Source: a virus
Taxonomy: Duplodnaviria; Caudoviricetes
Virus record (IMG/VR): IMGVR_UViG_3300044640_001991
Location: 1-25,432 of that record
Strand: one strand, 5' to 3'
DNA: 25,432 bases
The notes beneath the pieces are model-generated. The model did not search any database. It saw nothing but the letters and a program-made list of their open reading frames with translations, and was not told the origin of the DNA. This document shows positions 1-23,001 of this stretch, one piece after another. The stretch's first letter is position 1; the number at the start of each line of letters is the position of its first letter. Position numbers and translations under genes: made by a program.

Positions 1-1346
1 GTCCCACTTGTGCCTGAAGAACCTGTTGTACCGCTAGTTCCACTTGTTCCTGTAGTTCCTGATGTTCCGTCTATACCTGAAGTACCGCTGGTACCAGTTG
101 TACCTGAAGTACCTGTAGTTCCTGAAGTTCCTGATGTACCTGAAGTACCGCTTGTTGCAGATGTCCCACTTGTGCCTGAAGAACCTGTTGTACCGCTAGT
201 TCCACTTGTTCCTGTAGTTCCTGATGTTCCGTCTATACCTGAAGTACCGCTGGTACCAGTTGTACCTGAAGTGCCGCTTGTTCCTGATGTACCTGAAGTG
301 CCGCTTGTTCCTGATGTACCTGAAGTACCACTTGTTCCTGTAGTTCCTGATGTTCCACTTGTTGCTGATGTTCCTGAAGTACCACTTGTTGCTGATGTTC
401 CTGATGTTCCTGATGTGCCTGTTGTACCGCTAGTTCCACTTGTTCCTGTAGTTCCTGATGTTCCGTCTATACCTGAAGTACCGCTAGTACCTGATGTTCC
501 TGTTGAACCTGAAGTACCACTTGTTGCAGACGTACCTGATGTTCCTGTTGAACCTGAAGTACCTGACGTTGCAGATGTTCCTGATGTTCCACTAGTACCT
601 GATGTACCTGATGAACCACTAGTACCTGAAGTTCCGTCTATTCCTGATGTTCCACTTGTACCTGTAGAACCTGAAGTTCCACTAGTCCCTGTTGTACCTG
701 AAGTACCACTCGTTGCAGATGTTCCTGATGTTCCACTTGTTCCTGAAGTACCTGATGTACCTGTAGTACCAGTTGTTCCTGTTTTTCCTGATGTTCCACT
801 TGTTCCTGAAGTACCTGTTGAACCACTAGTACCTGAAGTTCCGTCTATTCCTGATGTTCCTGATGTTCCACTTGTACCTGTAGAACCTGAAGAACCTGAT
901 GTTCCACTAGTCCCTGTTGTACCTGAAGTACCACTCGTTGCAGATGTTCCTGATGTTCCACTTGTTCCTGTAGAACCTGAAGTTCCACTTGAACCGTCAA
1001 CACCTGAAGTTCCACTTGTACCAGATGTTCCTGTAGAACCTGAAGTTCCGCTTGTACCGTCAATTCCTGAAGTACCTGATGTTCCATCTATTCCACTAGT
1101 ACCTGAAGTTCCGTCTATTCCACTAGTTCCTGAAGTACCGCTTGTTCCACTTGTTCCTGACGAACCTGAAGTTCCGCTAGTTCCTGTTGAACCTGATGTT
1201 CCACTTGTTCCTGAAGTACCGTCTACCCCACTCGTCCCTGATGAACCACTAGTTCCAGATGTTCCTGAAGTACCACTTGACCCTGAGGTTCCTGAAGTAC
1301 CACTTGACCCTGAGGTTCCTGAAGTACCAGATGTTCCTGAAGTACC
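1..1346 (-). repeat. Coding 9-bp-period repeat (G-X-Y, about 149 triplets in window) with higher-order duplications
   Basis: cctgaagta/cctgatgtt/ccacttgtt units. 1-110 is repeated exactly at 163-272 and partly at 418-485. About 631-745 is nearly duplicated at about 838-970. Confidence 0.95.
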
Positions 1347-1538
1347 ATTAAATGTTGTGGCACTTATTGTGTGTAATTGTCCATTAGCGTCAATAGTAAC
1401 CACCAAAGGGTCGACCGATTGGGTCAACCCTGAGATGAAAATTTCTCCTGCGCTTCCGAGTTTTATTCTTTTAATTCCATCCGTTGATAAAAATAATTCA
1501 TCGTCAATCGAATAGAAAAAACCTTTATTAAGTGCCAT
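1..1538 (-). CDS. Gly-Thr-Ser repeat protein 2, putative virion fibre/appendage; 3' end lies beyond the left edge of the window
   Basis: Not in the ORF track because it has no stop in the window. ATG at 1538-1536, 3 nt after the upstream TAA (TAACATATG). Reads [64 protein letters not shown], then ([18 protein letters not shown])n open to the edge (512 codons). Same strand and repeat type as the neighbouring gene. Confidence 0.9.
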
Positions 1539-1541
1539 ATG

Positions 1542-4500
1542 TTATATAATTTGTACCCATCCACCTGATTTATAGATATATAGTCCTTCGTCTCCGTCCG
1601 TTTGATATACTATTAAAGCCACATCAACTGCTGACATCGTTAGACCATTTCTCTGAGTTTCTGTTAATCTTGGGAACATGATTCCTCTTGTTCCAAATAT
1701 TTCGAATATTGCGTTTGCGGTTGTTCTTGTTGTTTGTCCTATAACTATTGTATTTCCTGTTCCTCCTGTTACCTCAGCAATTGGTGTTGTAGTATCTCCA
1801 ATAGTATCTGTTGAAGTGAATTTAACAATTGTGTTAAGTGTTCCTCCTACTGCAACTGAGGTTCCTGAAGTACCTGTTGTACCTGAAGTTCCACTTGTTC
1901 CTGTTGTTCCTGAAGTACCTGAAGTTCCTGACGAACCACTAGTACCTGAAGTACCTGATGTACCTGTTGTACCACTTGTACCACTTGTACCTGTTGTACC
2001 ACTTGTACCTGTTGTTCCTGATGAACCTGATGTTCCATCCGTACCACTTGTTCCATCTGTTCCTGAAGTTCCTGAGGTACCACTTGTGCCTGTTGAACCT
2101 GATGTACCACTTGTACCACTAGTTCCTGATGAACCTGAAGTACCGCTTGTTCCTGTTGTCCCTGAAGACCCTGATGTTCCGCTAGTTCCTGATGAACCAC
2201 TTGTTCCTGTTGTCCCTGAAGTACCATCTATTCCACTAGTTCCTGAAGTTCCACTAGTTCCTGAAGTTCCACTAGTTCCTGAAGTACCGTTATCACCCTT
2301 AGGTCCATCTAAATTAGTATCCCACGTTGAATATACTCCTGAACCACTAATGTCCGTAACTTGTAGTGTTAGAGAACCTGAAACAGGATTGTACGAAACA
2401 ACGTTTCCGTGAAAGTTATTCACAGTACTATTTGCAACAATCACATGTTGTGCTGTTGTGTAAGATAATCCAACACTTGTTGTTAATGTAATATTATTAC
2501 CGACTGTTAATCCTGATAATGATATTGTATCATTTGATATTCCAATATACTCAGCACTTGTTCCGCTAGTTCCTGAAGTACCTGTAGTTCCTGAAGTACC
2601 CGAAGTACCTGTAGTTCCTGATGTTCCATCTATCCCTGAAGTACCCGAAGTACCTGTAGTTCCTGATGTTCCATCTATCCCTGAAGTACCCGAAGTACCT
2701 GTAGTTCCTGATGTTCCATCTATCCCTGAAGTACCCGTAGTTCCTGATGTTCCTGATGTTCCTGATGTTCCTGATGTTCCTGATGTTCCTGATGTTCCAT
2801 CTATTCCTGAAGTACCCGAAGTACCTGTAGTTCCTGATGTTCCATCTATTCCTGAAGTACCTGATGTACCATCTATTCCACTTGTTCCTGACGTGCCATC
2901 TATACCGCTAGTTCCTGAAGTACCACTTGTACCGCTAGTTCCTGAAGTACCGTCTATTCCTGAAGTTCCGCTAGTACCTGATGTACCATCTATTCCTGAT
3001 GTTCCTGATGTTCCTGACGTTCCATCTATTCCTGAAGTACCCGAAGTACCTGTAGTTCCTGATGTTCCATCTATTCCTGAAGTACCTGATGTACCATCTA
3101 TTCCACTTGTTCCTGACGTACCATCTATACCGCTAGTTCCTGAAGTACCATCAATTCCTGAAGTACCTGAAGTACCATCAATTCCTGAAGTACCTGAAGT
3201 GCCTGAAGTACCACTTGTTCCGTCTGTTCCTGATGTACCATCTGTTCCACTTGTTCCGTCTGTTCCTGATGTACCATCTGTTCCACTAGTTCCGTCTGTA
3301 CCTGAAGTACCGCTAGTTCCGTCTGTACCTGAAGTACCATCTGTTCCACTAGTTCCGTCTATTCCACTTGTTCCTGAAGTACCATCTGTTCCACTTGTTC
3401 CTGAAGTACCATCAATTCCTGAAGTACCTGAAGTTCCGTCTATTCCTGAAGTACCTGAAGTTCCGTCTATTCCACTTGTTCCTGAAGTACCATCAATTCC
3501 TGAAGTACCATCAATTCCTGAAGTACCTGAAGTACCATCAATTCCTGATGTTCCTGAAGTTCCGTCTATTCCACTTGTTCCTGAAGTACCATCAATACCT
3601 GAAGTACCACTTGTACCATCTATTCCGCTCGTACCTGAAGTTCCGTCTATTCCACTTGTTCCTGAAGTACCATCTATTCCTGATGTTCCTGAAGTACCGT
3701 CTATTCCACTAGTTCCTGAAGTACCTGAAGTTCCGTCTATTCCACTTGTTCCTGAAGTACCATCTATTCCTGATGTTCCTGAAGTACCGTCTATTCCTGA
3801 TGTTCCTGAAGTACCGTCTATTCCACTTGTTCCTGAAGTACCTGAAGTACCACTTGTACCTGAAGTACCATCTATTCCTGATGTTCCTGAAGTACCGTCT
3901 ATTCCTGATGTTCCTGAAGTACCGTCTATTCCTGATGTTCCTGAAGTACCGTCTATTCCACTTGTTCCTGAAGTACCGTCTATTCCACTTGTTCCTGAAG
4001 TACCATCTATTCCACTTGTTCCTGATGTACCATCAATACCACTTGTTCCTGATGTTCCATCAATACCTGAAGTACCACTTGTACCATCTATTCCGCTCGT
4101 ACCATCTATTCCTGAAGTACCTGATGTACCATCAATACCACTTGTTCCATCTATACCTGAAGTACCGCTAGTTCCTGAAGTACCTGAAGTACCATCTGTT
4201 CCACTAGTTCCATCTATTCCTGAAGTACCGCTAGTTCCTGTTGTACCTGAAGTACCATCTGTTCCTGATGTACCACTAGTTCCTGTTGTACCTGAAGTAC
4301 CATCTGTTCCACTAGTACCGTCTGTTCCGCTAGTCCCTGAAGTTCCATCTGTACCGCTAGTTCCTGAAGTTCCCGTTGTACCTGAACTACCTGATGTTCC
4401 TGTTGTCCCTGATGTACCATCTGTACCGCTTGTCCCTGAAGTTCCGCTAGTTCCTGTTGTACCTGACGAACCTGATGTTCCTGTAGTACCTGAAGTACCA

Positions 4501-6173
4501 TCTATTCCTGAAGTTCCACTAGTACCGTCAGTACCTGAAGTTCCACTAGTACCTGATGTTCCTGTTGTTCCACTTGAACCTGATGTTCCTGTTGTTCCCG
4601 AAGTTCCTGTTGTTCCACTTGAACCTGATGTTCCTGTTGTTCCCGAAGTTCCTGTTGTTCCCGAAGTACCACTTGTTCCGTTAACCCCACTTAATCCTGA
4701 AGTACCTGATGTTCCATCAGTTCCGCTAGTTCCTGAAGTACCGTCTGTTCCGCTAGTTCCTGAAGTACCGTCTGTTCCGCTAGTTCCATCTGTACCTGAA
4801 GTACCGTCTGTTCCGCTAGTTCCGTCTATTCCTGAAGTACCACTAGTACCGTCTATTCCACTTGTTCCATCTATTCCTGAAGTACCGCTAGTACCATCTG
4901 TACCTGATGTTCCATCTATTCCACTTGTTCCTGAAGTACCATCTGTTCCTGAAGTACCATCTGTTCCTGAAGTACCGCTAGTTCCGTCTATTCCTGAAGT
5001 ACCGCTAGTTCCTGTTGTACCTGAAGTACCGTCTGTTCCACTTGTTCCATCTGTTCCGCTAGTTCCTGTTGTACCTGAAGTACCATCTGTTCCACTAGTA
5101 CCATCTATTCCTGAAGTACCTGATGTACCATCTGTTCCACTTGTTCCGTCAGTACCTGATGTACCATCTGTTCCACTTGTTCCGTCAGTACCTGATGTAC
5201 CATCTATTCCTGAAGTACCACTAGTTCCTGTTGTACCTGATGAACCTGAAGTTCCTGAAGTACCATCTGTTCCACTAGTTCCGTCTATTCCTGAAGTACC
5301 TGATGTACCACTTGTACCTGAAGTACCTCCTGTTATTGTTACGGTAATATTTCCACCACCATCGTTTGTTACTGTTGCACCATTGAATGTTATTCCTGAT
5401 ACAGGGTTAACTGTCGTAATCCCGTCACCAACCGATAAGGCTGAACCAGAACCTGAAGTAATTCCTGTTATTGAGACATTTAAACCATCACTATTATTAA
5501 GGGTTAACGTTGAAGTTCCACTATCATAAGTCCCTCCCGTTACTGTACCTGTAAATCCTGTGATTGTTACTGTTTGTCCGTTGTTTTCATATAATTGTAA
5601 AGTAGTTGTTGCAGAAAAATATGTTCCTCCTGTAATAACAGTGTCGTTCATATTTGCAACTTTCCATCTTGCGTTTTCATGAGTCGCCCCACTAACACCT
5701 TCAATTGTTGACCCTGTCCAAGCATTTAAAAACAAAGCTCCCGCTTCGGTACTGTCTTCACATGTCCAGTTTGTACCGTCAAATCCAAGAGCTCCAGAGG
5801 TTTGTGCATTATTCCATAATGTTACATAGTTGTCTATGACATATTGATAGGTAGTATCTGCTGAAATAACATACACCATCATACCTAACCTTCTTCTTCC
5901 TGATGATATCTCATCACTATATAAAGTTAATACGTTGGGTATACTAAAAGGTGCGTTATATGCAAATGATATTGGGATTGTGTTTCCCGAATAAAGTACT
6001 GTTCCTTCAGTACCTGGCGGGATAACATAATTTAAGTCAGCATACGAATATACTTCCATGTATCCACCTATGTTGTATACACTGAAATTCGTACCTGTAC
6101 TATTGTCAAGAGCAACTCCGACTGGTGCTTCGTAGATTGTTCCTGCTAATGGATTTTGATAGTTAAAGCTCAT
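1542..6173 (-). CDS. Gly-Thr-Ser repeat protein 1 (1543 aa), putative long collagen-like or glycine-rich virion fibre
   Basis: Architecture: about 282-aa N-terminal region, 308 G-X-Y triplets, 83-aa beta-rich insert, 50 G-X-Y triplets beginning GPKGDN, about 104-aa C-terminal domain with [13 protein letters not shown]...[20 protein letters not shown]. Lies downstream of baseplate genes. The fibre role is inferred. Confidence 0.85.
1857..2306 (-). repeat. Second G-X-Y block (50 triplets)
   Basis: 450 nt running from GPK-GDN-GTS to GTS, with Gly at every third residue. Confidence 0.95.
2556..5327 (-). repeat. Main G-X-Y block (308 triplets: GTS, GTD, GID, GTT, GSS)
   Basis: 2772 nt = 308 x 9. 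Contains six perfect cctgatgtt copies (2743-2796), 45-bp tandem units near 2590-2735, and a near-duplication of about 130 bp (about 2794-2925 vs 3019-3150). Confidence 0.95.
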
Positions 6174-6190
6174 GTTCTTTTTTTATTTTT

Positions 6191-7816
6191 TTATATTAAG
6201 GTGTTTCCTTTGAAGTAAACATTATTCGCTGACGCGTTTATTCTAAATTCGGTATTACTATATGTTGTGTAAACTCGATAAGTTCCTGGTGGAATTGTCG
6301 AACCTGTAAATCCAACAGGAATTGTTGCGATAGTTGAATTTAAGTTTCTTGCTGTTAATGCGTTTGGATTACCTGCGGTATTCGTACCAATTTGAGTCAT
6401 AATTTGACCATTTGTTGCTCCTGTTGAAACGTACCAAGTATACCAAGCGTTTGTTGGTGTTGTTCCTGCCGCAACTTGAGTTGTTTGGAACAGATATGCG
6501 TTGATTGGATTACCATATGCATCAACTCCCCCTGTTGTTGGCGAAATTGTACCTGTAATAATTGCAGGTGCATTACCTCCCCAACCTGAGTATTGTAAGT
6601 AAGCGTTCATTTGTTGGTTAAACGTTACTGAATTAGCCGTTGTTGGACCATTAATGAAATATCCTCTCCATGTACTTCCTTGAGACAACATCCATCCATT
6701 AAAGCTTGATGTAAGTCCTTGAGGTTCAATTGTTAAGTAAGCAAGTAACGGTGCGTTTGTCGGTGTAGGTGTTTGAGTTTGAGTTGGTGTAGGTGTTTCA
6801 GTTGTAGTAGCGGTGTTAGTTGGTGTAGGTGTTTCAGTTGCGGTTGCCGTAGGAGTTGCCGTCTCGGTAGGAGTCATTGTTGCGGTTGCCGTAGGTGTTG
6901 CCGTCTCAGTTGGAGTTGCCGTTATTGTTGCGGTATTAGTTGGTGTAGGTGTTTCGGTTGCAGTAGGAGTTGGAGTCGATGTTTGAGTTTCACTTGGAGT
7001 ATTTGTAGGCGTCTCACTTGGTGTATTTGTTGGAGTTTCCGTCTGAGTCGGAGTATTTGTTGGAGTTTCCGTAGGAGTTTCCGTAGGAGTCTCTGTAGGA
7101 GTTTCCGTAGGTGTTTCACTTGGAGTATTTGTTGGAGTCTCAGTTGGAGTTGATGTTGGAGTCTCAGTTGGAGTCTCACTTGGTGTATTTGTAGGGGTCT
7201 CTGTGTTAGTAGGTGTTTGAGTAGGGGTCTCTGTTGGAGTCTCTGTTGGAGTCTCTGTTGGAGTTGGGGTAGATGTTTCGGTATTAGTTGGCGTGTTTGT
7301 AGGAGTCTCAGTTGGAGTCTCAGTAGGTGTTTCAGTATTAGTTGGTGTTACTGTAGAAGTATTTGTAGGTGTCGCAGTTGGAGTCTCTGTTGGAGTCTCT
7401 GTTGGAGTTTCAGTTGGAGTCTCAGTTGGCGTAGGGCTAGCACCTATTGAAGGTGTTTGAGTTGGAGTTTCAGTAGGTGTTGGTGTACTAGTTGCCGTTT
7501 CTGATGGAGTCGGTGTATTAGTCGCAGTTTCTGATGGTGTTGGGGTGTTTGTTGCACCTGGTGTTGGAGTAGGAGTTGCAGTTGGTGTTGGAGTAACACA
7601 TTCTAACGCAACTACAATACCATTAAACATGTCATTTCTTGACGCATTTGCATAATAAAGAACGTCATCGACATAGATATTAAATGGCCCAAGAGCGTTT
7701 GAGTTAGAAGCAAGTCTAACAATATATGTTGTACACCCTGTTACTGTTAATTGTTGTTCAATTTCAGTATCACATCCTGGGGCGTTATTAGTTACAAGAA
7801 TAGAATATATGGACAT
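6191..7816 (-). CDS. Mucin-like Pro/Thr-repeat protein (541 aa), putative virion surface protein
   Basis: About 74-aa Cys-containing N-terminal domain, about 279-aa [12 protein letters not shown] low-complexity stalk, about 188-aa aromatic-rich C-terminal domain. No signal peptide visible. Confidence 0.85.
6758..7594 (-). repeat. Coding Thr-Pro-Thr-Glu repeat (6/12-bp period)
   Basis: Units such as gttggagtctct and gtaggagtttcc encode (TPTE)n. Confidence 0.9.
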
Positions 7817-7832
7817 CCGCTGTTTTTATTAA

Positions 7833-7839
7833 ATAAATA
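7833..7839 (-). promoter_or_regulatory. TATTTAT motif, candidate late-promoter element
   Basis: Minus strand reads GCGG-TATTTAT-TTAATAAAAACAGCGG-ATG. Same core as three other intergenic copies. Confidence 0.45.
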
Positions 7840-7870
7840 CCGCAAGTATTCTATTTCCTTACCAACTATC

Positions 7871-7900
7871 TTAAAAATAATAAAATGAATTTATTTTTAA
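7871..7900 (-). terminator. AT-only 10-bp inverted repeat directly after a stop codon; possible terminator or processing hairpin
   Basis: TTAAAAATAA-N10-TTATTTTTAA begins immediately after the TAG at 7903-7901. No GC stem and no separate U-tract, so it is not a canonical terminator. Confidence 0.25.
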
Positions 7901-8260
7901 CTATGCGAGATATATTTCACACGACGCATCGGAAGAATATATATTAAAATTACAATTTGATTCTTGGATGTCGATGTTAACAACACAAGATGCTAATTCA
8001 ATTGTGATTTGGAAGTCACATCCGAAAGTACAATCTAATATTTTAAAGACAACACAATTATTTGAGTCAACTAATGTTAACATTATTTGTGGCGCATTCT
8101 GAAAAATACTAGGTATAACAGTATTATATTTCACTGTTGGTGGAACAGGTCCCGAACTAATAGTACCTATTAAAGTACTGTTGTTACCATAGATATCTGC
8201 TATGTAAACTTGAATAGGGTAAGTACCCCCTGATATTTCGGTTATTCTAACTTGTGTCAT
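7901..8260 (-). CDS. Small hypothetical structural protein (119 aa): degenerate SprB-like module plus 11-aa Cys repeats
   Basis: ATGA overlap with the upstream gene. ISGGTYP...LTLVDSNNC resembles the neighbouring modules. Tail reads CDFQITIELAS/CVVNIDIQESN/CNFNIYSSDAS/CEIYLA. Confidence 0.8.
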   Translation of the reverse strand: MTQVRITEISGGTYPIQVYIADIYGNNSTLIGTISSGPVPPTVKYNTVIPSIFQNAPQIMLTLVDSNNCVVFKILDCTFGCDFQITIELASCVVNIDIQESNCNFNIYSSDASCEIYLA

Positions 8261-13379: not shown

Positions 13380-14287
13380 TAGGTTGTTATATTTGTAAAG
13401 TTTTTACTGAAATCAATATTATCATTTCTATTCTGTCTAACCTCATATAACAATGCATTAAATTGGTCTCTAATCTCATACAAGTTGTATTGTCTGTAGA
13501 TATTGTTTTGACTATCGTAGATTGTGTAGATACCATCATCAATAGATTTAGTTTGATTACCGTAAAGAGCAATTGCAAGAGATGATATATCGTATTCAAC
13601 CATTTCTACTTCTAACGTTATTGGATTGAAGAACGTATTAGTAATAATAATGTCTTGATTCGGCTGCCCAATAAATGGAGTTGCGTTTGGTTTGTTTGTT
13701 GGTGAAGATGATGGTGATAGTGTTAAGAAAATAAGATTTGAATCTCCATCAACATATCTATATCTAATTGATTTTTGAGTCGTATTAACTTCATTAGTTA
13801 CAACAGGTTCACAATAGAAACTTGAAGTTACAACTCTAAAAAAGTTAGGTATTTTGGAACCGTCAGGATTTAAGTATTCAATTCTGAATCCAACAAGCCC
13901 TTGAGGTACAAACTTGTTTTGGTATTCTGTTGGTACGTTAGTAATATCAATTATAATACCTTTTACGTTTGGTAACGCACTTAAAACACCACAATCAGTG
14001 ATTACAGTTCTTATTTGGGCTGGTCTTATGTATAATGTGTAGATACCTAAAGCATTAAATTGATTTGCAGGTAATGTTAGATTATATAATCCTCCTAATA
14101 CTTCAACTCCTGCATTTCCACCTGTCTCAGTATTATTGAAATAAGGTCTAAGTAAAGTCTGTGCATCCAATTGCGTAAGCACGAACTGGTCTGTCACATC
14201 CCTTGTTGGAGTGTAGTTCATGATAATCTCAACATCTTGTGGTGAGACATCTGATGGTCTTATTGTACCGTATGAGCCTATTGCCAT
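13379..14287 (-). CDS. Hypothetical phage structural protein (302 aa)
   Basis: Long ORF, TAATG-coupled to the gp7-like gene and preceded by the 20-bp conserved motif. No family recognised. Confidence 0.8.
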   Translation of the reverse strand: MAIGSYGTIRPSDVSPQDVEIIMNYTPTRDVTDQFVLTQLDAQTLLRPYFNNTETGGNAGVEVLGGLYNLTLPANQFNALGIYTLYIRPAQIRTVITDCGVLSALPNVKGIIIDITNVPTEYQNKFVPQGLVGFRIEYLNPDGSKIPNFFRVVTSSFYCEPVVTNEVNTTQKSIRYRYVDGDSNLIFLTLSPSSSPTNKPNATPFIGQPNQDIIITNTFFNPITLEVEMVEYDISSLAIALYGNQTKSIDDGIYTIYDSQNNIYRQYNLYEIRDQFNALLYEVRQNRNDNIDFSKNFTNITT

Positions 14288-14296
14288 TTTGTCTTA

Positions 14297-14316
14297 TTTA
14301 ATTTATAAATAGTTTA
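14297..14316 (-). promoter_or_regulatory. 20-bp upstream element TAAACTATTTATAAATTAAA, candidate late promoter
   Basis: Identical to 23010-23029. Ends 9 nt before the ATG at 14287. Confidence 0.65.
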
Positions 14317-14330
14317 GTTCTTTTTTTCAT

Positions 14331-15419
14331 TTACGTTCTTTCTTTATTAATAACATTAAAAAATCCGTAACCATAATTTATCATGTCTCCTAAGTTATCA
14401 ACCTCACCTATTCTCATCACCCTTTCATACGCACTATTCTTACCTCTCTCAATAAAAACGTCAGTTTGTATTTGAGCTTGGTCAACAACTTTCAATAAAA
14501 CTTCGTCTTTTGTTATTGGACTTGCCTGTAAATTGTTTTGAGTCAATCCTGAAGATTCTTGGAAGAATATTGTTGTACCATCTGTATAGTCATAATAATC
14601 AACACCTGTTATAGTGTAAGCAGTAAATGTTGGATTCATGTTGGAAATTGCTCCCCATATTTGTCCATTAGCAATTACGGGTACCCCTACTTGGAACTTA
14701 GGTGACCCGTACTGAGCCAATTCGTTCACCCTTGACTTGGTCAATCCTGAAACTGTAAATGGGATTGTAACGTAGTTAATCGATGTTTGAGCCGATACCA
14801 CGTTAACAGCATCTCCTGAAAATATATAATCATACGATACTGGTGTTCCTATCCAGTTACCTGACGAAGGAGCAAAAAACGCCTCTCCTTTTGGGTTATA
14901 AATTGTTGGGTTAGTGAACGGAGTACTTATTTTTTTAGAAACTTTTGTCACTCCCCATGGATTTGTTTGTTCCAAGGTTATTGTGTATTCACGAGTCGCA
15001 GATGCGTATGTATGATTAAGAGTGTTCGGTGTGTACCCCGTTATTATTTGTTTTGGAGTGTTATCACCCCAATCAACTCTATAAGATGATAGGTTTAAAA
15101 ACTTTTGGAACTCGTCTGAAGTATTGTAGATATTGTATACGTATGGGTTTGCCGTTGTGGATGAAAATATAAAATTTGCAACTACATTTTTCTGTAATAC
15201 CGCTCCGTCAAATGGACTATAGTATCCCGCATCGACAGCGGTTTGTCTGAACAATAATGGGACACTTAAGTTTGTTAATAATGAAGCCCCGTTTGGACCC
15301 GAACTAACAACTTTGGTCATAGCAGAATACACCCCAACAGAAGTTCCATCGTAATTAACGACGGATAAATCTCTTGCAACGTTTTCAGGCGATACCGTTA
15401 TTTTATAATAATCTGACAT
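14331..15419 (-). CDS. Hypothetical structural protein with a PKD-like domain (362 aa)
   Basis: YRVDWGDNT...LNHTY....EYTITL fits the PKD-type 'W(D)FGDG...HTY...G.Y.V.L' pattern. Confidence 0.75.
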   Translation of the reverse strand: MSDYYKITVSPENVARDLSVVNYDGTSVGVYSAMTKVVSSGPNGASLLTNLSVPLLFRQTAVDAGYYSPFDGAVLQKNVVANFIFSSTTANPYVYNIYNTSDEFQKFLNLSSYRVDWGDNTPKQIITGYTPNTLNHTYASATREYTITLEQTNPWGVTKVSKKISTPFTNPTIYNPKGEAFFAPSSGNWIGTPVSYDYIFSGDAVNVVSAQTSINYVTIPFTVSGLTKSRVNELAQYGSPKFQVGVPVIANGQIWGAISNMNPTFTAYTITGVDYYDYTDGTTIFFQESSGLTQNNLQASPITKDEVLLKVVDQAQIQTDVFIERGKNSAYERVMRIGEVDNLGDMINYGYGFFNVINKERT

Positions 15420-15421
15420 TC

Positions 15422-16243
15422 TTATTGATTTACATATTCATACCATTTTATGGGTAAATTTGTCCCTAATCTTTGACCGTAAGTGTTAAACACTTGATAT
15501 GTTTGTGTTGGATAATCTAATTTAACTTTGTAGTATAATAATTGAGTACCATCAAACGAGTACTTATTTTCCATTAGAGCTTGTGGTCCTTCAGTCAGGT
15601 CAAATGGTGTGGTCCCTCTTCCAGTCATCATAGTTGTAAACTGACCTGTCTTGGCGTTATAGAATTTGGCACTCATATAGAATGTGTCAATGTCTAAAAA
15701 TGTTCTTTTCTTTAACCAATAAAGAAAGAAACCTTCTTTATCTCCAACATAGTCTAATATAAATTCAGGTTTTTTAATCGACACTAATGTTCTTTGCATT
15801 TGAGCATCCATCTTCAACCCCTGTTGTGTTGGTAAAATTACTGTTAGGTAATTTGTTTGTTTTTTGTCATCAGGAGTATCGTAAAAATCTAATTTAAAAA
15901 ATGAGTTAGTGAAATTGTTTTCATAGTAATAAACCTCTTGAGGTGTAAACCCTTCACTTAGGTAATTAACTCTCCAATTGTTAATATCACTCATTGAACC
16001 TCCTGAATAGAAATAAAACTCGTAATTAATCTCTGTATTGTTTGTTGTTCCTGTGGCAGGTGCGTGTGCAAACCTTGATATTTCAAAATCGCGTCCAACC
16101 CCAATAACTTCCGTTATTACTTCTTTTTCGTACTCTTGAATTGCCATATCTAATCCCAAGTAGTCCCACTTAAGTTCTACAGGAATATTGATTTGCTTGT
16201 CAGTATCTCCGTCTTGTCTAATTACAAATTTATTCACACTCAT
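15422..16243 (-). CDS. Hypothetical structural protein (about 273 aa)
   Basis: The ORF track starts at TTG 16246; the adjacent ATG at 16243 is more likely. Overlaps the upstream stop. Aromatic-rich (SFFKLDFYDTPD). No family recognised. Confidence 0.8.
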   Translation of the reverse strand: MSVNKFVIRQDGDTDKQINIPVELKWDYLGLDMAIQEYEKEVITEVIGVGRDFEISRFAHAPATGTTNNTEINYEFYFYSGGSMSDINNWRVNYLSEGFTPQEVYYYENNFTNSFFKLDFYDTPDDKKQTNYLTVILPTQQGLKMDAQMQRTLVSIKKPEFILDYVGDKEGFFLYWLKKRTFLDIDTFYMSAKFYNAKTGQFTTMMTGRGTTPFDLTEGPQALMENKYSFDGTQLLYYKVKLDYPTQTYQVFNTYGQRLGTNLPIKWYEYVNQ

Positions 16244-17921
16244 CAATTAACGGTTTAAATGAGAAGTCACTCTGAACCTCGTTATAGTTTATTCCTTCAG
16301 GTATTAATCTAAACACAACATTTTGAAATGGATAATGTGCTGTATTAAAAAATGGATAATCTACCCCTAACCCTGTGTTATCTTTAAACCCATAACTAAA
16401 CAAATCTCTCCATCTAAACTGTTCGTCTGATGAAGAATAAAATGCCCAATTTGGAACTTGGTCTAAGAACCCTACTCCTCCTGTTTCAACATAATCGGAG
16501 AATACTCTTAGAGTCATTGGGTTATGTGGTTTATAATAATATCCTGGCGCATTGTTAGTTGGGACCGTAGTTGTTGCAAATACAGTTTGGTTGAACTTCA
16601 TTTTGTGATAATATGGTGACACGGTTCTTTCTATTTGTTCGTAGTTGTTCCACTCACAGAAGTCCCCATCCATAATGTCATCCTTTTTCAAATCCAAATT
16701 ATAGAAGAAACTTTTGGTTTGACCATTAGTTAAAGTATACCCTGAAACAGGAATTGATGTGTTTGATTTTTGGTTATTATTACTCCACCACGGATTTACA
16801 ACTTTAGATAAATTAAATCCCCACCCTTGTTTTAATCCAATACCATCAAAAGGCATATTAAAATACCCTGAAAACCCTTTATTTACGATTGTCAGATTAA
16901 TCTCAGATAATGGTCTCATTTGGTTGTCTCTATATCCCGCCAAATCAATGTCATAATTTGATGTGAAGTTGTAAGCATTACTACTAGATTTCTGAGAAAC
17001 TCTTGTAACGTTATTTGGAGTAATAGAACTATACTCTAACTTCATTTGTTCCCCAAAAACATTCTTTTCAAAACCAACTTTAGTAACCGCTAAGTCAGTT
17101 AGATTAGTTAAAACTTTATATTGTTTAACATAATATTCTGACCTTGTTTCCGTTAAATTATCAGGATTAAGTACTCTTTTAAAAGTACCTGTGGTGCCAT
17201 TATTAAATGTCGTACCCGTATATCCAATATTCAACACATTAAATGTGTATACATCCGTACCAAATAATCCAGTTCCTAACGAATACACTTGGAAGATGTT
17301 TGAATTTCTATAAGTTAATGATAACTCAACATATTCGTTTGGAGTTAATCCGTGAGGAGCAACACAAGTAAATGAAATTAACCCATTACCATTTTGTGAT
17401 GTATTTGTTATTGTAAACGCAATACCATCACTCGCCTTCCAAGTAATGTCGTTAGAGTTACTTGAATAATATGTTAATTCCTTATCATAATTATTATCTG
17501 ATGGATAGGTTAAATAGTATGTCCAATTGTACGTATATGCACTTTTGGCTTTGTACTGAAAATGTTGGTCTCCGACATCAGGTCTATAAAAATCAAACTC
17601 GTAGTATTGTGGAAATCCTTTCCAAATACCACTTTGTTTAGAAGCCTCGGGTGATGTGTAATAAAGATTATCTCTAAATGGTATATAACCTGTGGTACCA
17701 GTATAAGCGTTGTCGTACAAATAAGTAACTTTAAAAGTAGGTCTAAAAATAGTACAAGCCTGTCTTTCGTCGTCATATACTTGAGCAAGGTTAACCGTTG
17801 CACTTCTGTCGTATTCAGTAATTTCCTGACTTTGTTCATCAAGATTTATCGAAATTTTTTGATTGACAGATGGTGCCCCTTTATACCTTAAACCGCTTGG
17901 AACTATTGTATACTTATTCAT
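16230..17921 (-). CDS. Hypothetical structural protein (563 aa)
   Basis: 8-bp overlap with the upstream gene. Contains FTCVAPHGLTPNEYVEL, a 'T..HGL..G(D/E).V.I'-type beta-domain motif common in phage structural proteins. Confidence 0.8.
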   Translation of the reverse strand: MNKYTIVPSGLRYKGAPSVNQKISINLDEQSQEITEYDRSATVNLAQVYDDERQACTIFRPTFKVTYLYDNAYTGTTGYIPFRDNLYYTSPEASKQSGIWKGFPQYYEFDFYRPDVGDQHFQYKAKSAYTYNWTYYLTYPSDNNYDKELTYYSSNSNDITWKASDGIAFTITNTSQNGNGLISFTCVAPHGLTPNEYVELSLTYRNSNIFQVYSLGTGLFGTDVYTFNVLNIGYTGTTFNNGTTGTFKRVLNPDNLTETRSEYYVKQYKVLTNLTDLAVTKVGFEKNVFGEQMKLEYSSITPNNVTRVSQKSSSNAYNFTSNYDIDLAGYRDNQMRPLSEINLTIVNKGFSGYFNMPFDGIGLKQGWGFNLSKVVNPWWSNNNQKSNTSIPVSGYTLTNGQTKSFFYNLDLKKDDIMDGDFCEWNNYEQIERTVSPYYHKMKFNQTVFATTTVPTNNAPGYYYKPHNPMTLRVFSDYVETGGVGFLDQVPNWAFYSSSDEQFRWRDLFSYGFKDNTGLGVDYPFFNTAHYPFQNVVFRLIPEGINYNEVQSDFSFKPLIDECE

Positions 17922-20900
17922 CTAATGAGTATTTTGTTTTAAACCTATCTAATGCCGATTCACCTTTAACAACCCCAAAATAGAATTGATATGGTGCTCC
18001 CACTAAAAATCTATTTGAAGTTTGTGGTGTTGAGGTATATCGACCACCCACAGTTGGGTAACTTACAACATTCCCATCTACACTATATATGTACCCTCTC
18101 GCGGTTAAATCATTCGCTACGGACGTTCCATTTAAATAATATTTAGTATCTGTTGTTGACCTATCTAAAGATTGATACTTACTTTGAATAATATCCTGAC
18201 TATTTGTTGCCCATGTGTTATTTTGATTTCCAAATATTGTTGATGAACCCGACGCTAGTCTCCATTGATAGAACGGAACTAATTGCGATTTAATACCATA
18301 TGGATATGGGTAATACCCGACGTTGTCGGTTCCTCTAAAATTAATTCTTCCTGGTGTTAAATAATCTTTGGTTTGAAGGTCTTCTGTTGTAGATGAAAAC
18401 CACACAGCCATAATCGGGTCACTAGGAGTTCCTAATATTGTTGTCGGGTTAATTGCCCCAGGAAAAATTTCATAAAATTCAGGTGAAAAATTAACATTCC
18501 CTATTTCAGAATTTATCGATAATAATTGAGCCAAGTCACCATCGATTCTTTTTTGTGGTCGGCTAAATAATTGGTCTATACCATTATCACCTGCAGGGAT
18601 TAATTGTTTTAAAAAACTATCATCAGTAATTCTTGAAATAACAAATAAATTAATTAAATCTGAAGTGTCCCCATAACTAGTTGGATTAATATTTGGTAGA
18701 ACATATCCTTTTGTTGATGGGTCAAAGGTTATTTCAGAATAAAAATAATCTTTCATCCCTAAATTAATAATTGTTGTTGGGTATAAAAGATTCGAGGCAT
18801 TTACACTTCCCGTGTCCGTTGCTCTTTTGCCAACAAATTTATTTGACGTGTCATTCCAAGGACTACTTCTATAATAGAAGTTATTACTATCCATATTGAA
18901 GTACACTATTTCTCGAGGGAAACTAGGGTACTCTGGTTTATTTTTATTATTATAATATGTGTTAACTTGTATTGGGAATGCGTATAGTGAACCATTAATC
19001 CAATTATTCATAAATGATTGGGATAATACTCCTCGACATAATCCGTAAAAAAATCTAAACCTAAATCCCCATTCTCCAAAATTACGTAAATCTTTAACTA
19101 AGTCAGTTATTGGTCTTCTTAAAAACATATAACACCCACTTTCAACAGCATCTTTAGTAGTACATGATTGGTTAATACCAAAAGTATCTCCAAATCCTTC
19201 GTAACATTCTAACCCAACCATTGCCTCACAATCGAAACTTTCCAAAACTTTAATAGAGTTTGGTAACCCCTCTAAATCTGCAGTTACAGTTTGAGCACCT
19301 GTTTGAAACGCATCAGATGTAATATCTTCCGAGTCTGTATTTATTAGGTAGACATTAAAATTAACGTTTTGTTGTAATAATGATGGATTTAATGTCCAAG
19401 AACCACCATCTAATCCGTCTGACGATGGTAGTCTATCAGTCCTTAGTACGTTCAATTGAGCGTTATCAATTAACATTGATGGGTTGTAACTAAAAAAAGT
19501 TTTTGTTGTATAATAATATCCTAAGTCGTTAACATAATTACTTGCAAAAACAAGACCACTATTATTAACTTTCATAACCGCACTACCAGATAGGTCTTCA
19601 CTGTTATCATATTTAATACTTGAAGAAAATGGACTATAAAATCCATTTGAAGATATCGATACTACTTTAGGTAAAGTAGATAAATCAACGCACGATATGA
19701 ACCCTCCTATAACACCTGAAGTATTAACTTTAACAGAATAGAAAATACCGCCCCAATTCATTTTCCACCAACGATTGTTTCCATCAAACCTACTTGTATA
19801 CCCAAAAAATGAGTCATAATTATTATACATTGTCAACCCAAGTCTTGGCGTGGCATTTGCTGCTACATTTGGTACAAATAAACTATCGGTATTCAGATAT
19901 GGGGCATTACATCCCAAAACATCTGAAGACGCAGAAACCCCACTTCGAGTAATCCTTTTCGCAGAACCTAAAGTACCAGGGTTGTTTGGAGCTACACCAT
20001 CTAATGTTGCCCCTACAGGTAATGGGTTTATACTTGCATCTAACGAACCGTAATATGCCGTATTTGTTGTATTAAATCCTGAAAACGATTGTCCCGCAAT
20101 TGACGATGTTGTGGTTCCAGGTTTAAAGAAATACGATTGATTATACATATCATTTTGATTGTAAGATTGTACCGATATACTACTATTATTTAATTTTTGT
20201 ATTGGTATGTTAACTCTTGTTGCTGCGGTTACAGTCCAATTCGAATCAAATTCACTTGTACCAAATAAATTACCTAACGAATATTCATTAACATATTTTG
20301 GAGAGTATGGGTCAACTCCTCTCTGTAAAACTAATATAAACTGAGAACTTGCTCCTTCAAAATATTCAAAAGCATTAAAATTGATTACGGCATTGTCAAC
20401 CGACCATCCTCCAAAACTTGGTTTAGCTGGTATGTATGTACCAACACTGTTAAGAATATTACCAAAAGATTGTGTCGTACCTGTATTCCATATTTTGGCG
20501 GCGTCCGATACTGTTATCGCAGTAATAACTTGGTAATACTCAACATCCGCAGGGAATCTATAATTAGTTTCAGATGAACCATAAGGTAAGTTATATCTAA
20601 CAGGTGTTACAATATTTGATACTTGTGTTGTTGCATAAGATACGTCTATTGTTGTTGCTCCACTACCATTATAAGTTTCACCACTAATACCCGTAATAAT
20701 ACCGTCGGCAGTTGATGCACTGTAAAGATAATTTGTATCTGTAGTTCCAGTTATATTAATAAAAGTTAATAAATCTCCCGCAGCAAATTGCTCCTGCGAT
20801 AACACCGTTATGGTATTATCATAATGATGTTTTCCAAAATTGGAATCTTTTGCGAATGTTACTTTAATTTTATTAATATTTGAAAAATAACTTTCTCTTA

Positions 20901-23001
20901 AATTAAAAATATTAATTCTTTCACCAATAGGTAAATCATATGATGCAACAAATCTACCTCCTCCAATGTTTAATTGTTGTGAAAGAGGTAACTTATATCT
21001 TGATGGGTCTCCAATATTAGAAGTTAACCCAAGTCCTGCTATCGCTTCACTAAACATGATGGACCAATCCTCACCATTTTCTGTATCTCCTGAGAAATAA
21101 CTAGATGCTAATCCATCGTAATAAAGGTCTGAAGATGAAAGATAAGATAAAACACCTGCACCATCTACACCTGAAGTTGCTTGGTTATTTGAACTATCTT
21201 TAAGGGTTTGTTTACAATCACAAGCCTGACAATCAGGATAAGTAATCATTGGTAACCTTATTGTATAATCTTTTTTAGTACAATACTTTCTCCATTTTTT
21301 AAATGGGTACCAAGAAAAAACTCTTTTCACTCTAATACCAACATAGGAAAGCCAACATAAAAAGTCTAAAACTAAATTATATAAAAATAATAAAATATGC
21401 CCAATAGTTAATAAGATTAACGCTACTGGTTGTATTACCGTCATTAAAATTGAGAAGAGGAAAAATAAAAAATCAAAGTTTCTAAACCCGTCATTAACAG
21501 GAAATTTGTTAACACTATCTTCACAATCTTGGTCATCAATTTCTTTAATACCAATAAACCTACCTGGCGCGGACCCAATAATATTTCTACCACTTTTGTA
21601 TTGGTCAATCAAAGAAGACACCGTATAAACTTTATTGAATTGAAATTCGTAGAATGTATCTTCGCAATCGATAATCTCATTAAGTCTCTCTATTTTTTTC
21701 TGTCCAATAAATCCATCAGTATAACCACTCCAAGCCAATCCAAAATAATAAGAACTCTGTTGTTGTTTAGAATTATTTGTTGTTGGAATACTTCTAGTTG
21801 ACGGGTCTGATGATGATGTTGTCCATCCGTATTCTTTAACGTTTGGAACTAAATAATAAGCTCTTCTTGTTTGTAAAGTTAAATCATTTGGTTGAGTCCA
21901 TTTGACCTTAAAACGGTACTTGGCCTTTGTTGGAACTCCAACAGTTGGGTCATTTGACAATACTTTTTCACCAAATTCATTAGTTATAAAATAATCTAAG
22001 TTCATTGGTAATTCTATTAACCATGTTCCTGAACCATCAATAACATTTCCTGATTGTTCTAACTCATATTGTTCTAAAACAGGGTTACCATCTATATCTT
22101 GTTGTATTGTTTGTCTTAACGCTAATATTTGACCTGGTGATGTTGTTAAACCGCATAGGTTACCCATGTTATCTTTTGGTCTTCCATTATTCCTTACTCT
22201 TAGAGTGTCAGGTGAAGAAAACATACATCCCATAAACACCGATGTCGGTTGTATATCAACATTGGCATCATCTCTTAAATCAAAATCTAATCGATTTATT
22301 GCAATTTGACAAAGTGACGCATCACCCCATAATGGAGAAACTTCAACGTTCTTAACTAAATTAACTATTTGTGGTAATGAATTTAAATCTGTTGAAGTTC
22401 TAAATTTAGAACCCGCAACTTGTGCTTCGGTTGCCAACCCCATTCTAATTAAATCCTGAGGTGTTAGTGAGAACTCTCCAATATCGGATAAGTCAACATC
22501 CATAACAATCGCTTGGTCCCCTAACGGAACCCCCATTATCATGTAATCCCCACTTTCGTTTGTTTTGGCAGTATACTTGTAATACGTGTCATATATTTCA
22601 ACTGCAGTTATCCCCGTAAGAGAATCCGCTCTTGTTGGTAGTGTACCTGTCGCTGAGTGCTTTGAATATGATTTTTCGTAAGGTAAAAGATTGTATCGAT
22701 ATCCGTCTTCATTTTTATCTGAAGGAGATTCATAAGGATAGATACTTGATATTAAAGGATTAGATTCGTCAACATTGGTTATTGGGACGAATACCGCAAC
22801 TCTCGCATTAGGTATACCCAACCCATTATTGGCGGTAACTCTACCAACAATAACACCATAGTCCGCACAACTTCTTGTGTAGATATCCGCTTGTTGTATT
22901 TTTAACGATAAGATTTCTAAGAATTCAAACTCTTGGTCTAATTGGACGTTGATTGTCTTATTAGACCCGAGTTCGGTTTTTATCCTATATGATTGACCCA
23001 T
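17914..23001 (-). CDS. Large baseplate-associated protein (1695 aa) with an N-terminal carboxypeptidase-regulatory/prealbumin-like fold and an internal hydrophobic segment
   Basis: GVIVGRVTANNGLGIPNARVAVF...AKTNESGDYMIMGVPLG matches that fold's pattern. A 48-aa hydrophobic stretch is followed by a basic patch and CQACDC. Confidence 0.75.
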   Translation of the reverse strand: MGQSYRIKTELGSNKTINVQLDQEFEFLEILSLKIQQADIYTRSCADYGVIVGRVTANNGLGIPNARVAVFVPITNVDESNPLISSIYPYESPSDKNEDGYRYNLLPYEKSYSKHSATGTLPTRADSLTGITAVEIYDTYYKYTAKTNESGDYMIMGVPLGDQAIVMDVDLSDIGEFSLTPQDLIRMGLATEAQVAGSKFRTSTDLNSLPQIVNLVKNVEVSPLWGDASLCQIAINRLDFDLRDDANVDIQPTSVFMGCMFSSPDTLRVRNNGRPKDNMGNLCGLTTSPGQILALRQTIQQDIDGNPVLEQYELEQSGNVIDGSGTWLIELPMNLDYFITNEFGEKVLSNDPTVGVPTKAKYRFKVKWTQPNDLTLQTRRAYYLVPNVKEYGWTTSSSDPSTRSIPTTNNSKQQQSSYYFGLAWSGYTDGFIGQKKIERLNEIIDCEDTFYEFQFNKVYTVSSLIDQYKSGRNIIGSAPGRFIGIKEIDDQDCEDSVNKFPVNDGFRNFDFLFFLFSILMTVIQPVALILLTIGHILLFLYNLVLDFLCWLSYVGIRVKRVFSWYPFKKWRKYCTKKDYTIRLPMITYPDCQACDCKQTLKDSSNNQATSGVDGAGVLSYLSSSDLYYDGLASSYFSGDTENGEDWSIMFSEAIAGLGLTSNIGDPSRYKLPLSQQLNIGGGRFVASYDLPIGERINIFNLRESYFSNINKIKVTFAKDSNFGKHHYDNTITVLSQEQFAAGDLLTFINITGTTDTNYLYSASTADGIITGISGETYNGSGATTIDVSYATTQVSNIVTPVRYNLPYGSSETNYRFPADVEYYQVITAITVSDAAKIWNTGTTQSFGNILNSVGTYIPAKPSFGGWSVDNAVINFNAFEYFEGASSQFILVLQRGVDPYSPKYVNEYSLGNLFGTSEFDSNWTVTAATRVNIPIQKLNNSSISVQSYNQNDMYNQSYFFKPGTTTSSIAGQSFSGFNTTNTAYYGSLDASINPLPVGATLDGVAPNNPGTLGSAKRITRSGVSASSDVLGCNAPYLNTDSLFVPNVAANATPRLGLTMYNNYDSFFGYTSRFDGNNRWWKMNWGGIFYSVKVNTSGVIGGFISCVDLSTLPKVVSISSNGFYSPFSSSIKYDNSEDLSGSAVMKVNNSGLVFASNYVNDLGYYYTTKTFFSYNPSMLIDNAQLNVLRTDRLPSSDGLDGGSWTLNPSLLQQNVNFNVYLINTDSEDITSDAFQTGAQTVTADLEGLPNSIKVLESFDCEAMVGLECYEGFGDTFGINQSCTTKDAVESGCYMFLRRPITDLVKDLRNFGEWGFRFRFFYGLCRGVLSQSFMNNWINGSLYAFPIQVNTYYNNKNKPEYPSFPREIVYFNMDSNNFYYRSSPWNDTSNKFVGKRATDTGSVNASNLLYPTTIINLGMKDYFYSEITFDPSTKGYVLPNINPTSYGDTSDLINLFVISRITDDSFLKQLIPAGDNGIDQLFSRPQKRIDGDLAQLLSINSEIGNVNFSPEFYEIFPGAINPTTILGTPSDPIMAVWFSSTTEDLQTKDYLTPGRINFRGTDNVGYYPYPYGIKSQLVPFYQWRLASGSSTIFGNQNNTWATNSQDIIQSKYQSLDRSTTDTKYYLNGTSVANDLTARGYIYSVDGNVVSYPTVGGRYTSTPQTSNRFLVGAPYQFYFGVVKGESALDRFKTKYSLDE

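Follow-up and report, generated by a model that had tools for sequence, protein, structure and literature searches.

A tetrapeptide, Ser/Thr-Gly/Ala-x-Thr ([S/T]-[G/A]-x-T), occurs about fourfold over expectation on the exterior virion proteins of large uncultured phages belonging to a common group, is held under protein-level selection in orthologs and is lineage-specific. The window, i.e., the whole 25,432-nucleotide stretch of DNA analyzed here, carries three signals: Thr-Pro (TP) repeats, Gly-Thr-Ser (GTS) repeats and this dispersed motif (Table 1). We give an even chance to the reading that the dispersed motif serves as a sequon for O-glycosylation, the probable writer being a conserved GT4-like enzyme of the phage (gene 79 of the related genome G001). 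As the genome of the window phage is represented by only 25 kb, its enzymes are deduced from relatives: a search of the window proteins yielded no modifying enzyme, as the first-pass annotation had stated, and the glycosyltransferase genes, of which there are many, are seen in complete relatives.

Table 1 Genes of the window and their content of [S/T]-[G/A]-x-T
Positions	Strand	Gene product	Motifs and repeats
3..1538	-	Fibre-like gene, runs off the window end; Pfam Collagen match	64-aa leader with 2 motifs, then GTS triplet tract (3-1346)
1542..6173	-	1543-aa fibre-like protein	11 motifs in residues 1-284 (about 5322-5990); GTS tracts about 2556-5336 and 1857-2288
6191..7816	-	541-aa protein, predicted GT60 substrate	Thr-Pro-Thr-x tract (about 6758-7603) with only 1 strict motif
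7901..8260	-	119-aa protein	1 motif (8222-8233), kept in 23/23 orthologs
8257..10392	-	711-aa SprB-repeat protein	14 motifs vs 3.8 expected
10392..13379	-	995-aa protein	7 motifs, each kept in 20-24/24 orthologs
13379..14287	-	302-aa conserved protein	0 motifs, internal negative
14331..15419	-	362-aa protein	6 motifs, 5 kept in 25-29/29 orthologs
15422..16246	-	274-aa protein	1 motif
16230..17921	-	563-aa protein	4 motifs
17914..23001	-	1695-aa protein	11 motifs, cluster at 20653-20751
23097..24935	-	gp6-like baseplate wedge	1 motif, at chance
24941..25411	-	gp25-like baseplate wedge	0 motifs

Across 16 non-repeat segments of the window, 63 copies of the motif were observed versus 16.7 ± 4.0 expected, and none of 5000 shuffles reached this number, so that the enrichment proposed from hand counts is borne out. 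The counts themselves were closely reproduced: the 11 copies noted early in the 1543-aa protein comprise 10 in residues 1-280 (1.9 expected) and TGGT at 281-284, the SprB-like protein holds slightly more than the 12 or so first estimated, and the numbers for the 362-aa protein (6; 0.9 expected), the 1695-aa protein (11; 3.0 expected, p=0.0004), the leader of the leftmost gene (2; 0.16 expected), gp6 (1; 0.9 expected), gp25 and the 302-aa protein (both 0) agree. Copies absent from the earlier count are found in the 995-aa (7; 1.3 expected) and 563-aa proteins (4; 0.9 expected). Post-hoc choice of the pattern can be rejected as the explanation, because TGxT, SGxT and SAxT rank as the top three among 8000 a-b-x-c patterns, in a ranking that covered six spacings with 8000 patterns each. 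A hydrophobic residue precedes 46 of the 63 sites (about 32% expected), yielding the fuller form hydrophobic-[S/T]-[G/A]-x-T, and Pro is absent at x. Taken singly, TAxT shows no enrichment in the window (5 vs 3.4), Ser in the fourth position occurs as often as chance predicts (14 vs 14.1), and N-G/A-x-T and D-G/A-x-T are about twofold enriched. The general O-glycosylation sequon of Bacteroidota, D-(S/T)-(A/I/L/V/M/T), is likewise a short Ser/Thr sequon but of another sequence, and it is depleted here (16 vs 24.9 expected), in agreement with the distinction drawn in the first reading.

Selection was analyzed on 44 motif sites in seven ortholog sets. The last motif Thr undergoes 0.39 changes per site per tree length compared with 1.07 for 399 other Thr residues (p=1e-5), and the x position changes faster than background. 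Ortholog alignments thus display a sequon-type trait, with fixed hydroxyl positions conserved and x free. Ser/Thr swaps make up 58 of the 115 events leaving motif position 1 (851/2412 in the background) and Gly/Ala swaps 30 of 75 (background 140/812), while replacement of Ser/Thr by Asn/Asp at position 1 is only slightly rarer than background (15/115 vs 401/2412). A DNA-level repeat was rejected, since all 55 of 55 motif 12-mers differ and codon use is ordinary. Likewise rejected was an artefact of the SprB fold: five bacterial SprB-repeat proteins contain the motif at chance (63 vs 61). A homolog search with the 995-aa protein retrieved close relatives only. The claim that unrelated virion folds share one word is supported, with the word under selection.

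In a complete 326-kb relative, the motif is confined to virion proteins. A genome-wide comparison in G001 gave 46 copies versus 45.9 expected in 314 genes outside the virion sets and 16 versus 12.6 in 17 virion genes classed as core or internal; the accessory or exterior class holds 131 versus 28.7, a class partly picked after the counts and hence of no use as a test. The motif is found on the sheath, in an insertion of the capsid protein and on many tail-side proteins; there is none on the tail tube. Within the capsid protein of 40 relatives, 121 copies fall in the insertion (26 expected) and 8 outside it (14 expected); the sites are internal rather than C-terminal. The flanks of the insertion align to T4 gp23, and the insertion itself matches the outer I-domain of T4. 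The insertion domain of T4 gp23 faces outward. AlphaFold models of the capsid and 362-aa proteins are of low confidence (mean pLDDT 44.6 and 40.2), and outward location is accordingly assigned only at the level of the capsid domain. A fold search returned helical-hairpin matches only (Z 7.5 or less).

In related phages, the homologous operons for sheath, capsid and baseplate carry a different word or none. Immuto, a cultured Flavobacterium phage that shares accessory genes with G001, as well as Mel-JY01 and G079, harbor [S/T]-G-S in place of the motif (3.1x, 4.3x and 4.5x, respectively). Among 134 sheath representatives, 33 are enriched for the motif only, 10 for the sister word only, 2 for both and 89 for neither. 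Both words are located within variable insertions of capsid and sheath, where alignment is too poor to equate sites one by one; orthology of the family's core glycosyltransferases with those of Immuto was not established (best profile E=0.002-0.003 among sister-word phages).

The two repeat types pair with enzymes of their own. Thr-Pro repeats travel with a GT60 enzyme in 25/25 genomes, and Gly-Thr-Ser repeats with an Aah/TibC-like enzyme in 23/25; the dispersed motif tracks neither. Dictyostelium enzymes are among the GT60 polypeptide alpha-GlcNAc transferases. Gene 69 of G001 matches PF11397 (GT60) at 226 bits, and GT60 was present in 10/10 family contigs first tested. As writer of the motif it was rejected: G053 (which also lacks TP repeats) and LR756501 carry the motif without GT60, and XacN1 shows the reverse. 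Gene 329 of G001 contains a TIGR04414 domain (275.8 bits, cut-off 200 bits) and keeps the catalytic Asp110, Lys230 and four iron-finger Cys residues in alignment with 4RB4, with Arg286 falling in a gap. GTS-repeat fibre genes neighbor the TibC-like gene in 38/80 loci. The TibC-like enzyme was rejected as sole motif writer, being absent from the circular, motif-positive G006, which also lacks GTS repeats; five TibC-positive genomes (Mel-JY01, G035, G037, G079 and LR756504, the latter read in part) are without the motif. The first-pass annotation had viewed the giant repeats as polymers of a relaxed motif, which is not confirmed, given position-4 Ser at chance, 22 strict matches against 195 GTS triplets in the 927-aa GTS tract, and one strict match in the 282-aa TP tract. 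Its remark that Ala is the sole departure from Gly stands for seven ATS triplets, which are restricted to the leftmost gene. Nor is there support for a single motif read by a single system in which the GTS and TP proteins are dense carriers, as the repeats mostly mismatch the motif and track other enzymes, and G006 and G053 split them.

Co-occurrence with modifying genes, suggested at the outset as a check, thus separates the repeats from the motif: the dispersed signal tracks one GT4-like GT-B gene, G001 gene 79 (orthologs at 35% identity or more). All five genomes counted as positive (G001, G003, G006, G053 and LR756501) are enriched (2.56-3.10x), and all eight without the gene are not (0.93-1.44x); the count leaves out G002, a 61% fragment that is motif-rich (2.63x) and where gene 79 was not found, and G011, G012 and G075, all with gene 79. 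LR756501, an unrelated 735-kb phage, was picked for carrying gene 79; in the part read it shares only 25 G001 genes, gene 79 among them, has a TibC-like gene and lacks genes 103, 104 and 83 as well as GT60 (LR756501 was read over 375/735 kb, LR756504 over 240/636 kb and LR756508 over 400/484 kb). In relatives of LR756501, [ST]GxT is found at 26 vs 4.0, 14 vs 2.7, 12 vs 2.4 and 36 vs 3.1 at four of six loci, the other two being without a scorable protein. ESCO13 shows no motif enrichment (0.93x) but encodes a gene 79 homolog of 27% identity, which lacks an internal stretch of ~50 residues common to four aligned motif-positive orthologs. Gene 79 had no Pfam match at 1e-4 and weak NCBIfam matches; its Atlas neighbors carry PF00534/PF13692, and the ESCO13 homolog is annotated as glycosyltransferase. 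Profile, PDB and Atlas searches gave no tie to characterized protein glycosyltransferases, and the PDB search no match for gene 79 or GT60; gene 103 matched a putative glycosyltransferase (8XSG). With two independent positive lineages only, and a TibC-like gene in LR756501, different writers may act in different lineages. Gene 79 lies near exonuclease and dUTPase genes in G001, and in ESCO13 the homolog has primase and polymerase genes nearby; because of these neighbors, its acceptor could be DNA or the cell wall.

The motif might instead be an unmodified structural element, a strand-end turn of the ST/Asx-turn type favored in beta-rich outer virion proteins. The preceding hydrophobic residue and the lack of Pro at x fit strand-to-loop geometry, and the twofold excess of the Asn and Asp variants and the near-background rate of replacement by Asn/Asp point in the same direction. 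We nevertheless consider this unlikely, as bacterial SprB proteins of the same fold are at chance, homologous operons of related phages use another word or none, and enrichment tracks one enzyme gene across lineages. A low probability is also assigned to a tag for a non-sugar modification (acyl, methyl, carbamoyl or phospho) or for docking of a decoration protein or chaperone. Selection and outward location would suit any tag, and G001 encodes methyltransferases, a carbamoyltransferase, and GDSL-like and 2OG-Fe(II) enzymes; however, motif-positive G006 retains six GT-like genes but is devoid of the carbamoyltransferase, both checked methyltransferase genes and almost the entire sugar island, and the small gene set common to LR756501 and G001 includes gene 79.

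If the tag is glycosylated, its writer could be another phage enzyme, perhaps depending on lineage: the Aah/TibC-like enzyme, given that TibC modifies Ser before Gly or Ala in TibA; GT60, given its presence in all contigs first tested; or the products of genes 103, 104 and 83, which are present in G001, G003, G006 and G053. This is quite unlikely in view of the mismatched genomes described above for TibC and GT60 and of LR756501, which lacks the three core genes. Very unlikely is a single system reading one relaxed motif, although each GTS tract contains 22-23 strict matches along with S-G and T-G dipeptides and there are seven Ala-for-Gly exchanges, as the three signals separate across genomes. 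The accessory genes common to G001 and Immuto would be compatible with a host enzyme reading the motif, which we regard as extremely improbable: the Bacteroidota sequon is depleted and the motif tracks a phage gene. Moreover, O-glycosylation in Bacteroidota is periplasmic, whereas virions assemble in the cytoplasm.

We therefore lean toward a sugar-acceptor tag; no glycan was observed. That gene 79 writes this tag is plausible, at somewhat below even chances. From enrichment, protein-level selection, virion restriction, capsid-insertion location and gene 79 co-occurrence, we infer the following mechanism. A soluble GT-B enzyme would, in the host cytoplasm, bind the peptide at the point where a beta-strand runs into a small-residue loop and transfer a nucleotide sugar to one motif hydroxyl or the other. 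As Aah modifies the residue at the loop start of a strand-loop-strand element, the acceptor may be the first Ser/Thr and the strict last Thr a recognition residue; the reverse is also possible. Extension of the glycan would fall to core genes 103, 104 and 83 and to a variable sugar island, and GT60 and the Aah/TibC-like enzyme would coat the Thr-Pro and Gly-Thr-Ser tracts, respectively. Tentatively, and with the odds against it, this may extend to a modular virion glycocode in large aquatic phages, in which at least three separate initiating glycosyltransferases encoded by the phage each have their own peptide signal on the same particle (gene 79, [S/T]-[G/A]-x-T; GT60, Thr-Pro; Aah/TibC-like, Gly-Thr-Ser), lineages gain, lose and exchange both writers and signals, sister clades such as that of Immuto change the word to [S/T]-G-S, and diversity of the coat comes from the variable sugar island.

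For this phage family, the capsid matches stored in IMG/VR are estimated at about 4000. If the proposal is true, an abundant family has a sugar-coated particle, with possible consequences for host binding, decay and grazing, and the many glycosyltransferases in such genomes, usually read as DNA- or host-surface modifiers, would be accounted for. The three enzyme-peptide pairs are open to in vitro test, and cultured Immuto allows a check of the sister word by mass spectrometry.

Virion glycosylation by phage enzymes is already known from mycobacteriophages (PMC11256854, PMC12619734). For Che8 and relatives, capsid and tail tube subunits are reported to bear glycans at their C-termini (Freeman et al. 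2023, as relayed in the same two papers). Both systems involve phage-encoded glycosyltransferases, here in complete relatives, and virion-protein sugars, here by deduction. They differ in that the word in our phages is dispersed and internal on tail-side proteins, sheath and capsid insertion, with none on the tube, and in that mycobacteriophage glycans have been demonstrated, whereas motif and genes are here read from sequence. Aah and TibC (TIGR04414) are described as bacterial autotransporter heptosyltransferases, soluble GT-B enzymes acting on Ser at strand-loop-strand elements, TibC modifying those Ser residues of TibA that precede Gly or Ala (PMC4358343, PMC3835316). In this family the enzymes act with an autotransporter partner and an ADP-heptose donor. 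Gene 329 resembles them in its domain, catalytic Asp, Lys and four Cys; unlike them, the phage enzyme tracks collagen-like Gly-Thr-Ser tracts, is fused to other glycosyltransferase and methyltransferase domains and has no evident autotransporter. Aah is described as acting without a sequence consensus, whereas the dispersed phage motif has one. GT60 (PF11397) comprises the polypeptide alpha-GlcNAc transferases of protists, including those of T. cruzi mucins (PMC3769586); gene 69 differs in being phage-encoded and travels with Thr-Pro repeats, not [S/T]-[G/A]-x-T. A literature search, with most subscription papers outside its scope, found no acceptor sequon described for phages and no substrate assigned to a GT60 or TibC-like enzyme of a phage. 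Moraphages are described as large aquatic T4-like phages of predicted Bacteroidota hosts, with four core putative glycosyltransferases and sizes up to 307 kb; the abstract, introduction, methods and pan-genome section describe no such motif (PMC12619734). Compared by description, our relatives reach 326 kb and so exceed the reported size; like moraphages, the window family keeps four core GT-like genes (79, 83, 103 and 104).

The tetrapeptide [S/T]-[G/A]-x-T is a genuine word of virion proteins, kept by selection and specific to certain lineages. With repeats removed, the window contains 63 copies against 16.7 ± 4.0 expected from per-segment shuffles, a number reached in 0 of 5000 shuffles, and TGxT, SGxT, and SAxT occupy ranks 1–3 among 8000 a-b-x-c patterns. 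The enrichment test named by the first-pass annotation comes out in its favor; its counts hold overall, except that the SprB-like protein has 14 copies instead of 12 and the 995-aa protein contributes 7 more. At position 4 the requirement for Thr is strict (Ser: 14 vs. 14.1 expected), Pro never occupies position x, and 46 of the 63 sites are preceded by I, V, F, Y, L, or W. The giant repeats, previously read as dense carriers of the motif, proved to be a separate matter, with 22 strict matches in 927 residues and 23 in 448 residues of the Gly-Thr-Ser (GTS) tracts, and one in the 282-residue Thr-Pro tract.

All 13 window genes lie on the minus strand, in an order running from gp25-/gp6-like baseplate wedges to fibre-like repeat proteins. 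The source record is 25 kb long, i.e., the window only. The 302-aa gene has 308 confirmed IMG/VR relatives, the best 80 of which share at least 89% identity. A 326-kb relative rated complete (G001) carries T4-like capsid, portal, sheath, and terminase genes. Our search for a cultured close relative found none; the nearest gp6 matches (27–29%) are LR756508, Mel-JY01, and the Flavobacterium Immuto phages.

Comparison of 24–41 dereplicated orthologs per gene indicates that the motif is selected as a peptide word. Many sites are retained with letters switching within class, such as one in the 995-aa protein that reads SAFT, TAFT, TGFT, or SGFT and persists in 24/24 orthologs; other sites turn over, being kept in only 5/27 or 6/40. 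By parsimony on trees (44 sites), the last Thr changes at a rate of 0.39 vs. 1.07 for other Thr residues (p = 1e-5), while position x changes above background. Ser/Thr exchanges (58/115 at the motif vs. 851/2412 background) and Gly/Ala exchanges (30/75 vs. 140/812) are in excess, and all 55 motif DNA 12-mers are distinct. The SprB fold is no explanation, because five bacterial SprB-repeat proteins gave 63 vs. 61.

Across G001, it is the tail-side accessory proteins, the sheath, and the capsid protein that hold the excess: the 314 genes outside the virion sets contain 46 copies vs. 45.9 expected, and the count for 17 core or internal virion genes is 16 vs. 12.6. Among 40 capsid proteins, copies concentrate in an insertion at residues 107–349 (121 vs. 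26; elsewhere 8 vs. 14), whose flanks align to T4 gp23. The insertion domain of T4 gp23 forms the outer surface. The AlphaFold capsid model, poor overall (pLDDT 44.6), shows an insertion rich in beta structure, where one motif falls within a strand and three others in loops or irregular segments; that of the 362-aa protein is usable for residues 80–170 at most.

In S/T/G-rich proteins the motif is enriched 3.10-, 2.63-, and 3.01-fold in G001 and related phages G002 and G003, but reaches only 1.35- and 1.28-fold in Immuto and Mel-JY01. The latter two favor a sister word, [S/T]-G-S, in their tail and baseplate operons (3.13- and 4.28-fold), as does phage G079 (4.47-fold); Immuto is a cultured phage in which the sister word is testable. 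These three phages share a conserved GT4-GT4-GT2 gene trio. Of 134 representative sheaths of at least 600 aa (from 150 returned; enrichment threshold p < 0.01), 33 are enriched in the motif only, 10 in [ST][GA]S only, 2 in both, and 89 in neither.

The proposed search for sugar genes was productive, as G001 encodes 15 or more genes with glycosyltransferase domains, along with numerous nucleotide-sugar enzymes; among them are a GT60 gene immediately downstream of a Thr-Pro gene and an Aah/TibC-like domain that scores above the family cut-off and retains the catalytic residues. We compared each signal across near-complete phage records, using raw counts uncorrected for relatedness. Thr-Pro repeats and GT60 occur together in 7 of 25 records and are both missing from 18, with 0 discordant, the positives being the window phage's family and the XacN1 group. 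GTS repeats and TibC-like genes coincide in 14 of 25 records, with 9 having neither and 2 discordant (G043 and LR756504); agreement is 14/14 among records chosen by neither trait, including one gain in the Immuto-like set. GTS-type repeats lie within 10 kb of 38/80 TibC-like loci, and the enzyme occurs in 12/32 mostly partial contigs picked by GTS repeats vs. 4/50,697 phage records at large; GT60 occurs in 1/32 of these contigs. XacN1 encodes 14 Thr-Pro-rich proteins. In G035, a TibC-positive 115-kb phage with terminal repeats, large proteins carry strong N-T-A-S-G and V/I-x-G-G repeats that look like the strand-loop-strand repeats found in TibC substrates.

The dispersed motif tracks neither GT60 nor the TibC-like enzyme, and the single system originally envisaged resolves into three signals. 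The circular relative G006, with GTS repeats absent, the sugar island almost absent, and six GT-like genes kept, has no TibC-like gene and shows 3.04-fold enrichment; G053, lacking both GT60 and Thr-Pro repeats, reaches 2.56-fold, and XacN1 carries GT60 but not the motif. The candidates left are therefore the core GT-like genes 79, 83, 103, and 104 of G001. Among 24 records, gene 79 (GT4-like) has a single match outside the family, in the 735-kb phage LR756501, where genes 83, 103, and 104 are absent. The 375 kb of LR756501 examined as a test show 3.03-fold enrichment, with SGxT and TGxT as top patterns and no match to the G001 structural genes checked. Since Ala variants are unenriched there and in G053, the core common to the lineages is [ST]-G-x-T. 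In eight records lacking gene 79, the motif ranges from 0.93- to 1.44-fold. Against this pairing, gene 79 has matches in 138 phage records, the cultured ones among the matches listed standing at about 27%; ESCO13, the sole cultured match tested, shows no enrichment, and its enzyme lacks an internal stretch common to four aligned motif-positive orthologs. The neighbors of gene 79 would also allow a DNA-related role.

Coordinates of features in the window and in compared phages
Record	Position	Feature
Window	10-1515 and 2893-5529 (+)	Long open frames rich in Val-Pro, antisense shadows of GTS repeats; probably not genes
G001	1-26600, 105000-126700, 303500-326291	Very large variable sugar islands with GT7 with lectin domains, GT10, GT11, GT25, radical SAM, 2OG-Fe(II), and many GDSL-like paralogs; content nearly all missing from G006
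G001	161112-163598 and 314056-316311	TonB-dependent receptor-like gene and protein with two Hint domains
G001	152000-260000	Similar short leaders (MKK..RLTE.DL or MKIII.E.QY) at the start of many unrelated genes
G006	238700-240200	Near-identical tandem paralogs
Immuto (MW353176)	about 84-100 kb, 128-149 kb	[S/T]-G-S at 3-4.5x in tail/baseplate proteins; also Mel-JY01 (PP395634) and G079
XacN1 (AP018399), locus L114	11989-18946	GT60 block with carbamoyltransferase and YibB/HtrL-like gene, shared with G001; also Xoo-sp13
LR756501, locus L591	8020-15993	GTS/GSS repeat gene two genes from TibC-like gene
ESCO13, locus L813	3678-6822	Tandem array of four glycosyltransferase genes in E. coli phages of Phapecoctavirus type; two of the four are distant relatives of gene 79

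We consider the motif rather likely to be a glycosylation sequon, and tentatively name gene 79 as its writer. The GT4-like enzyme would most likely act on virion subunits in the cytoplasm, binding the strand-end word and glycosylating one of its hydroxyls, in the way that Aah acts where a strand-loop-strand loop begins (PMC3835316). Gene 103, similar to alpha-1,6-glucosyltransferase-like clusters, would extend the glycan together with genes 83 and 104 and the variable island; we infer every chemical step. Our literature search for a phage acceptor sequon found none; new here are the split into three signals, the concordance of GT60 with Thr-Pro repeats, gene 79 as a candidate, and a sister word in a cultured phage. 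Virion glycans are already known for mycobacteriophages, as cited in PMC11256854 and PMC12619734, and moraphages, which may be the same lineage as the window phage's family or a sister lineage, have four core glycosyltransferases (PMC12619734).
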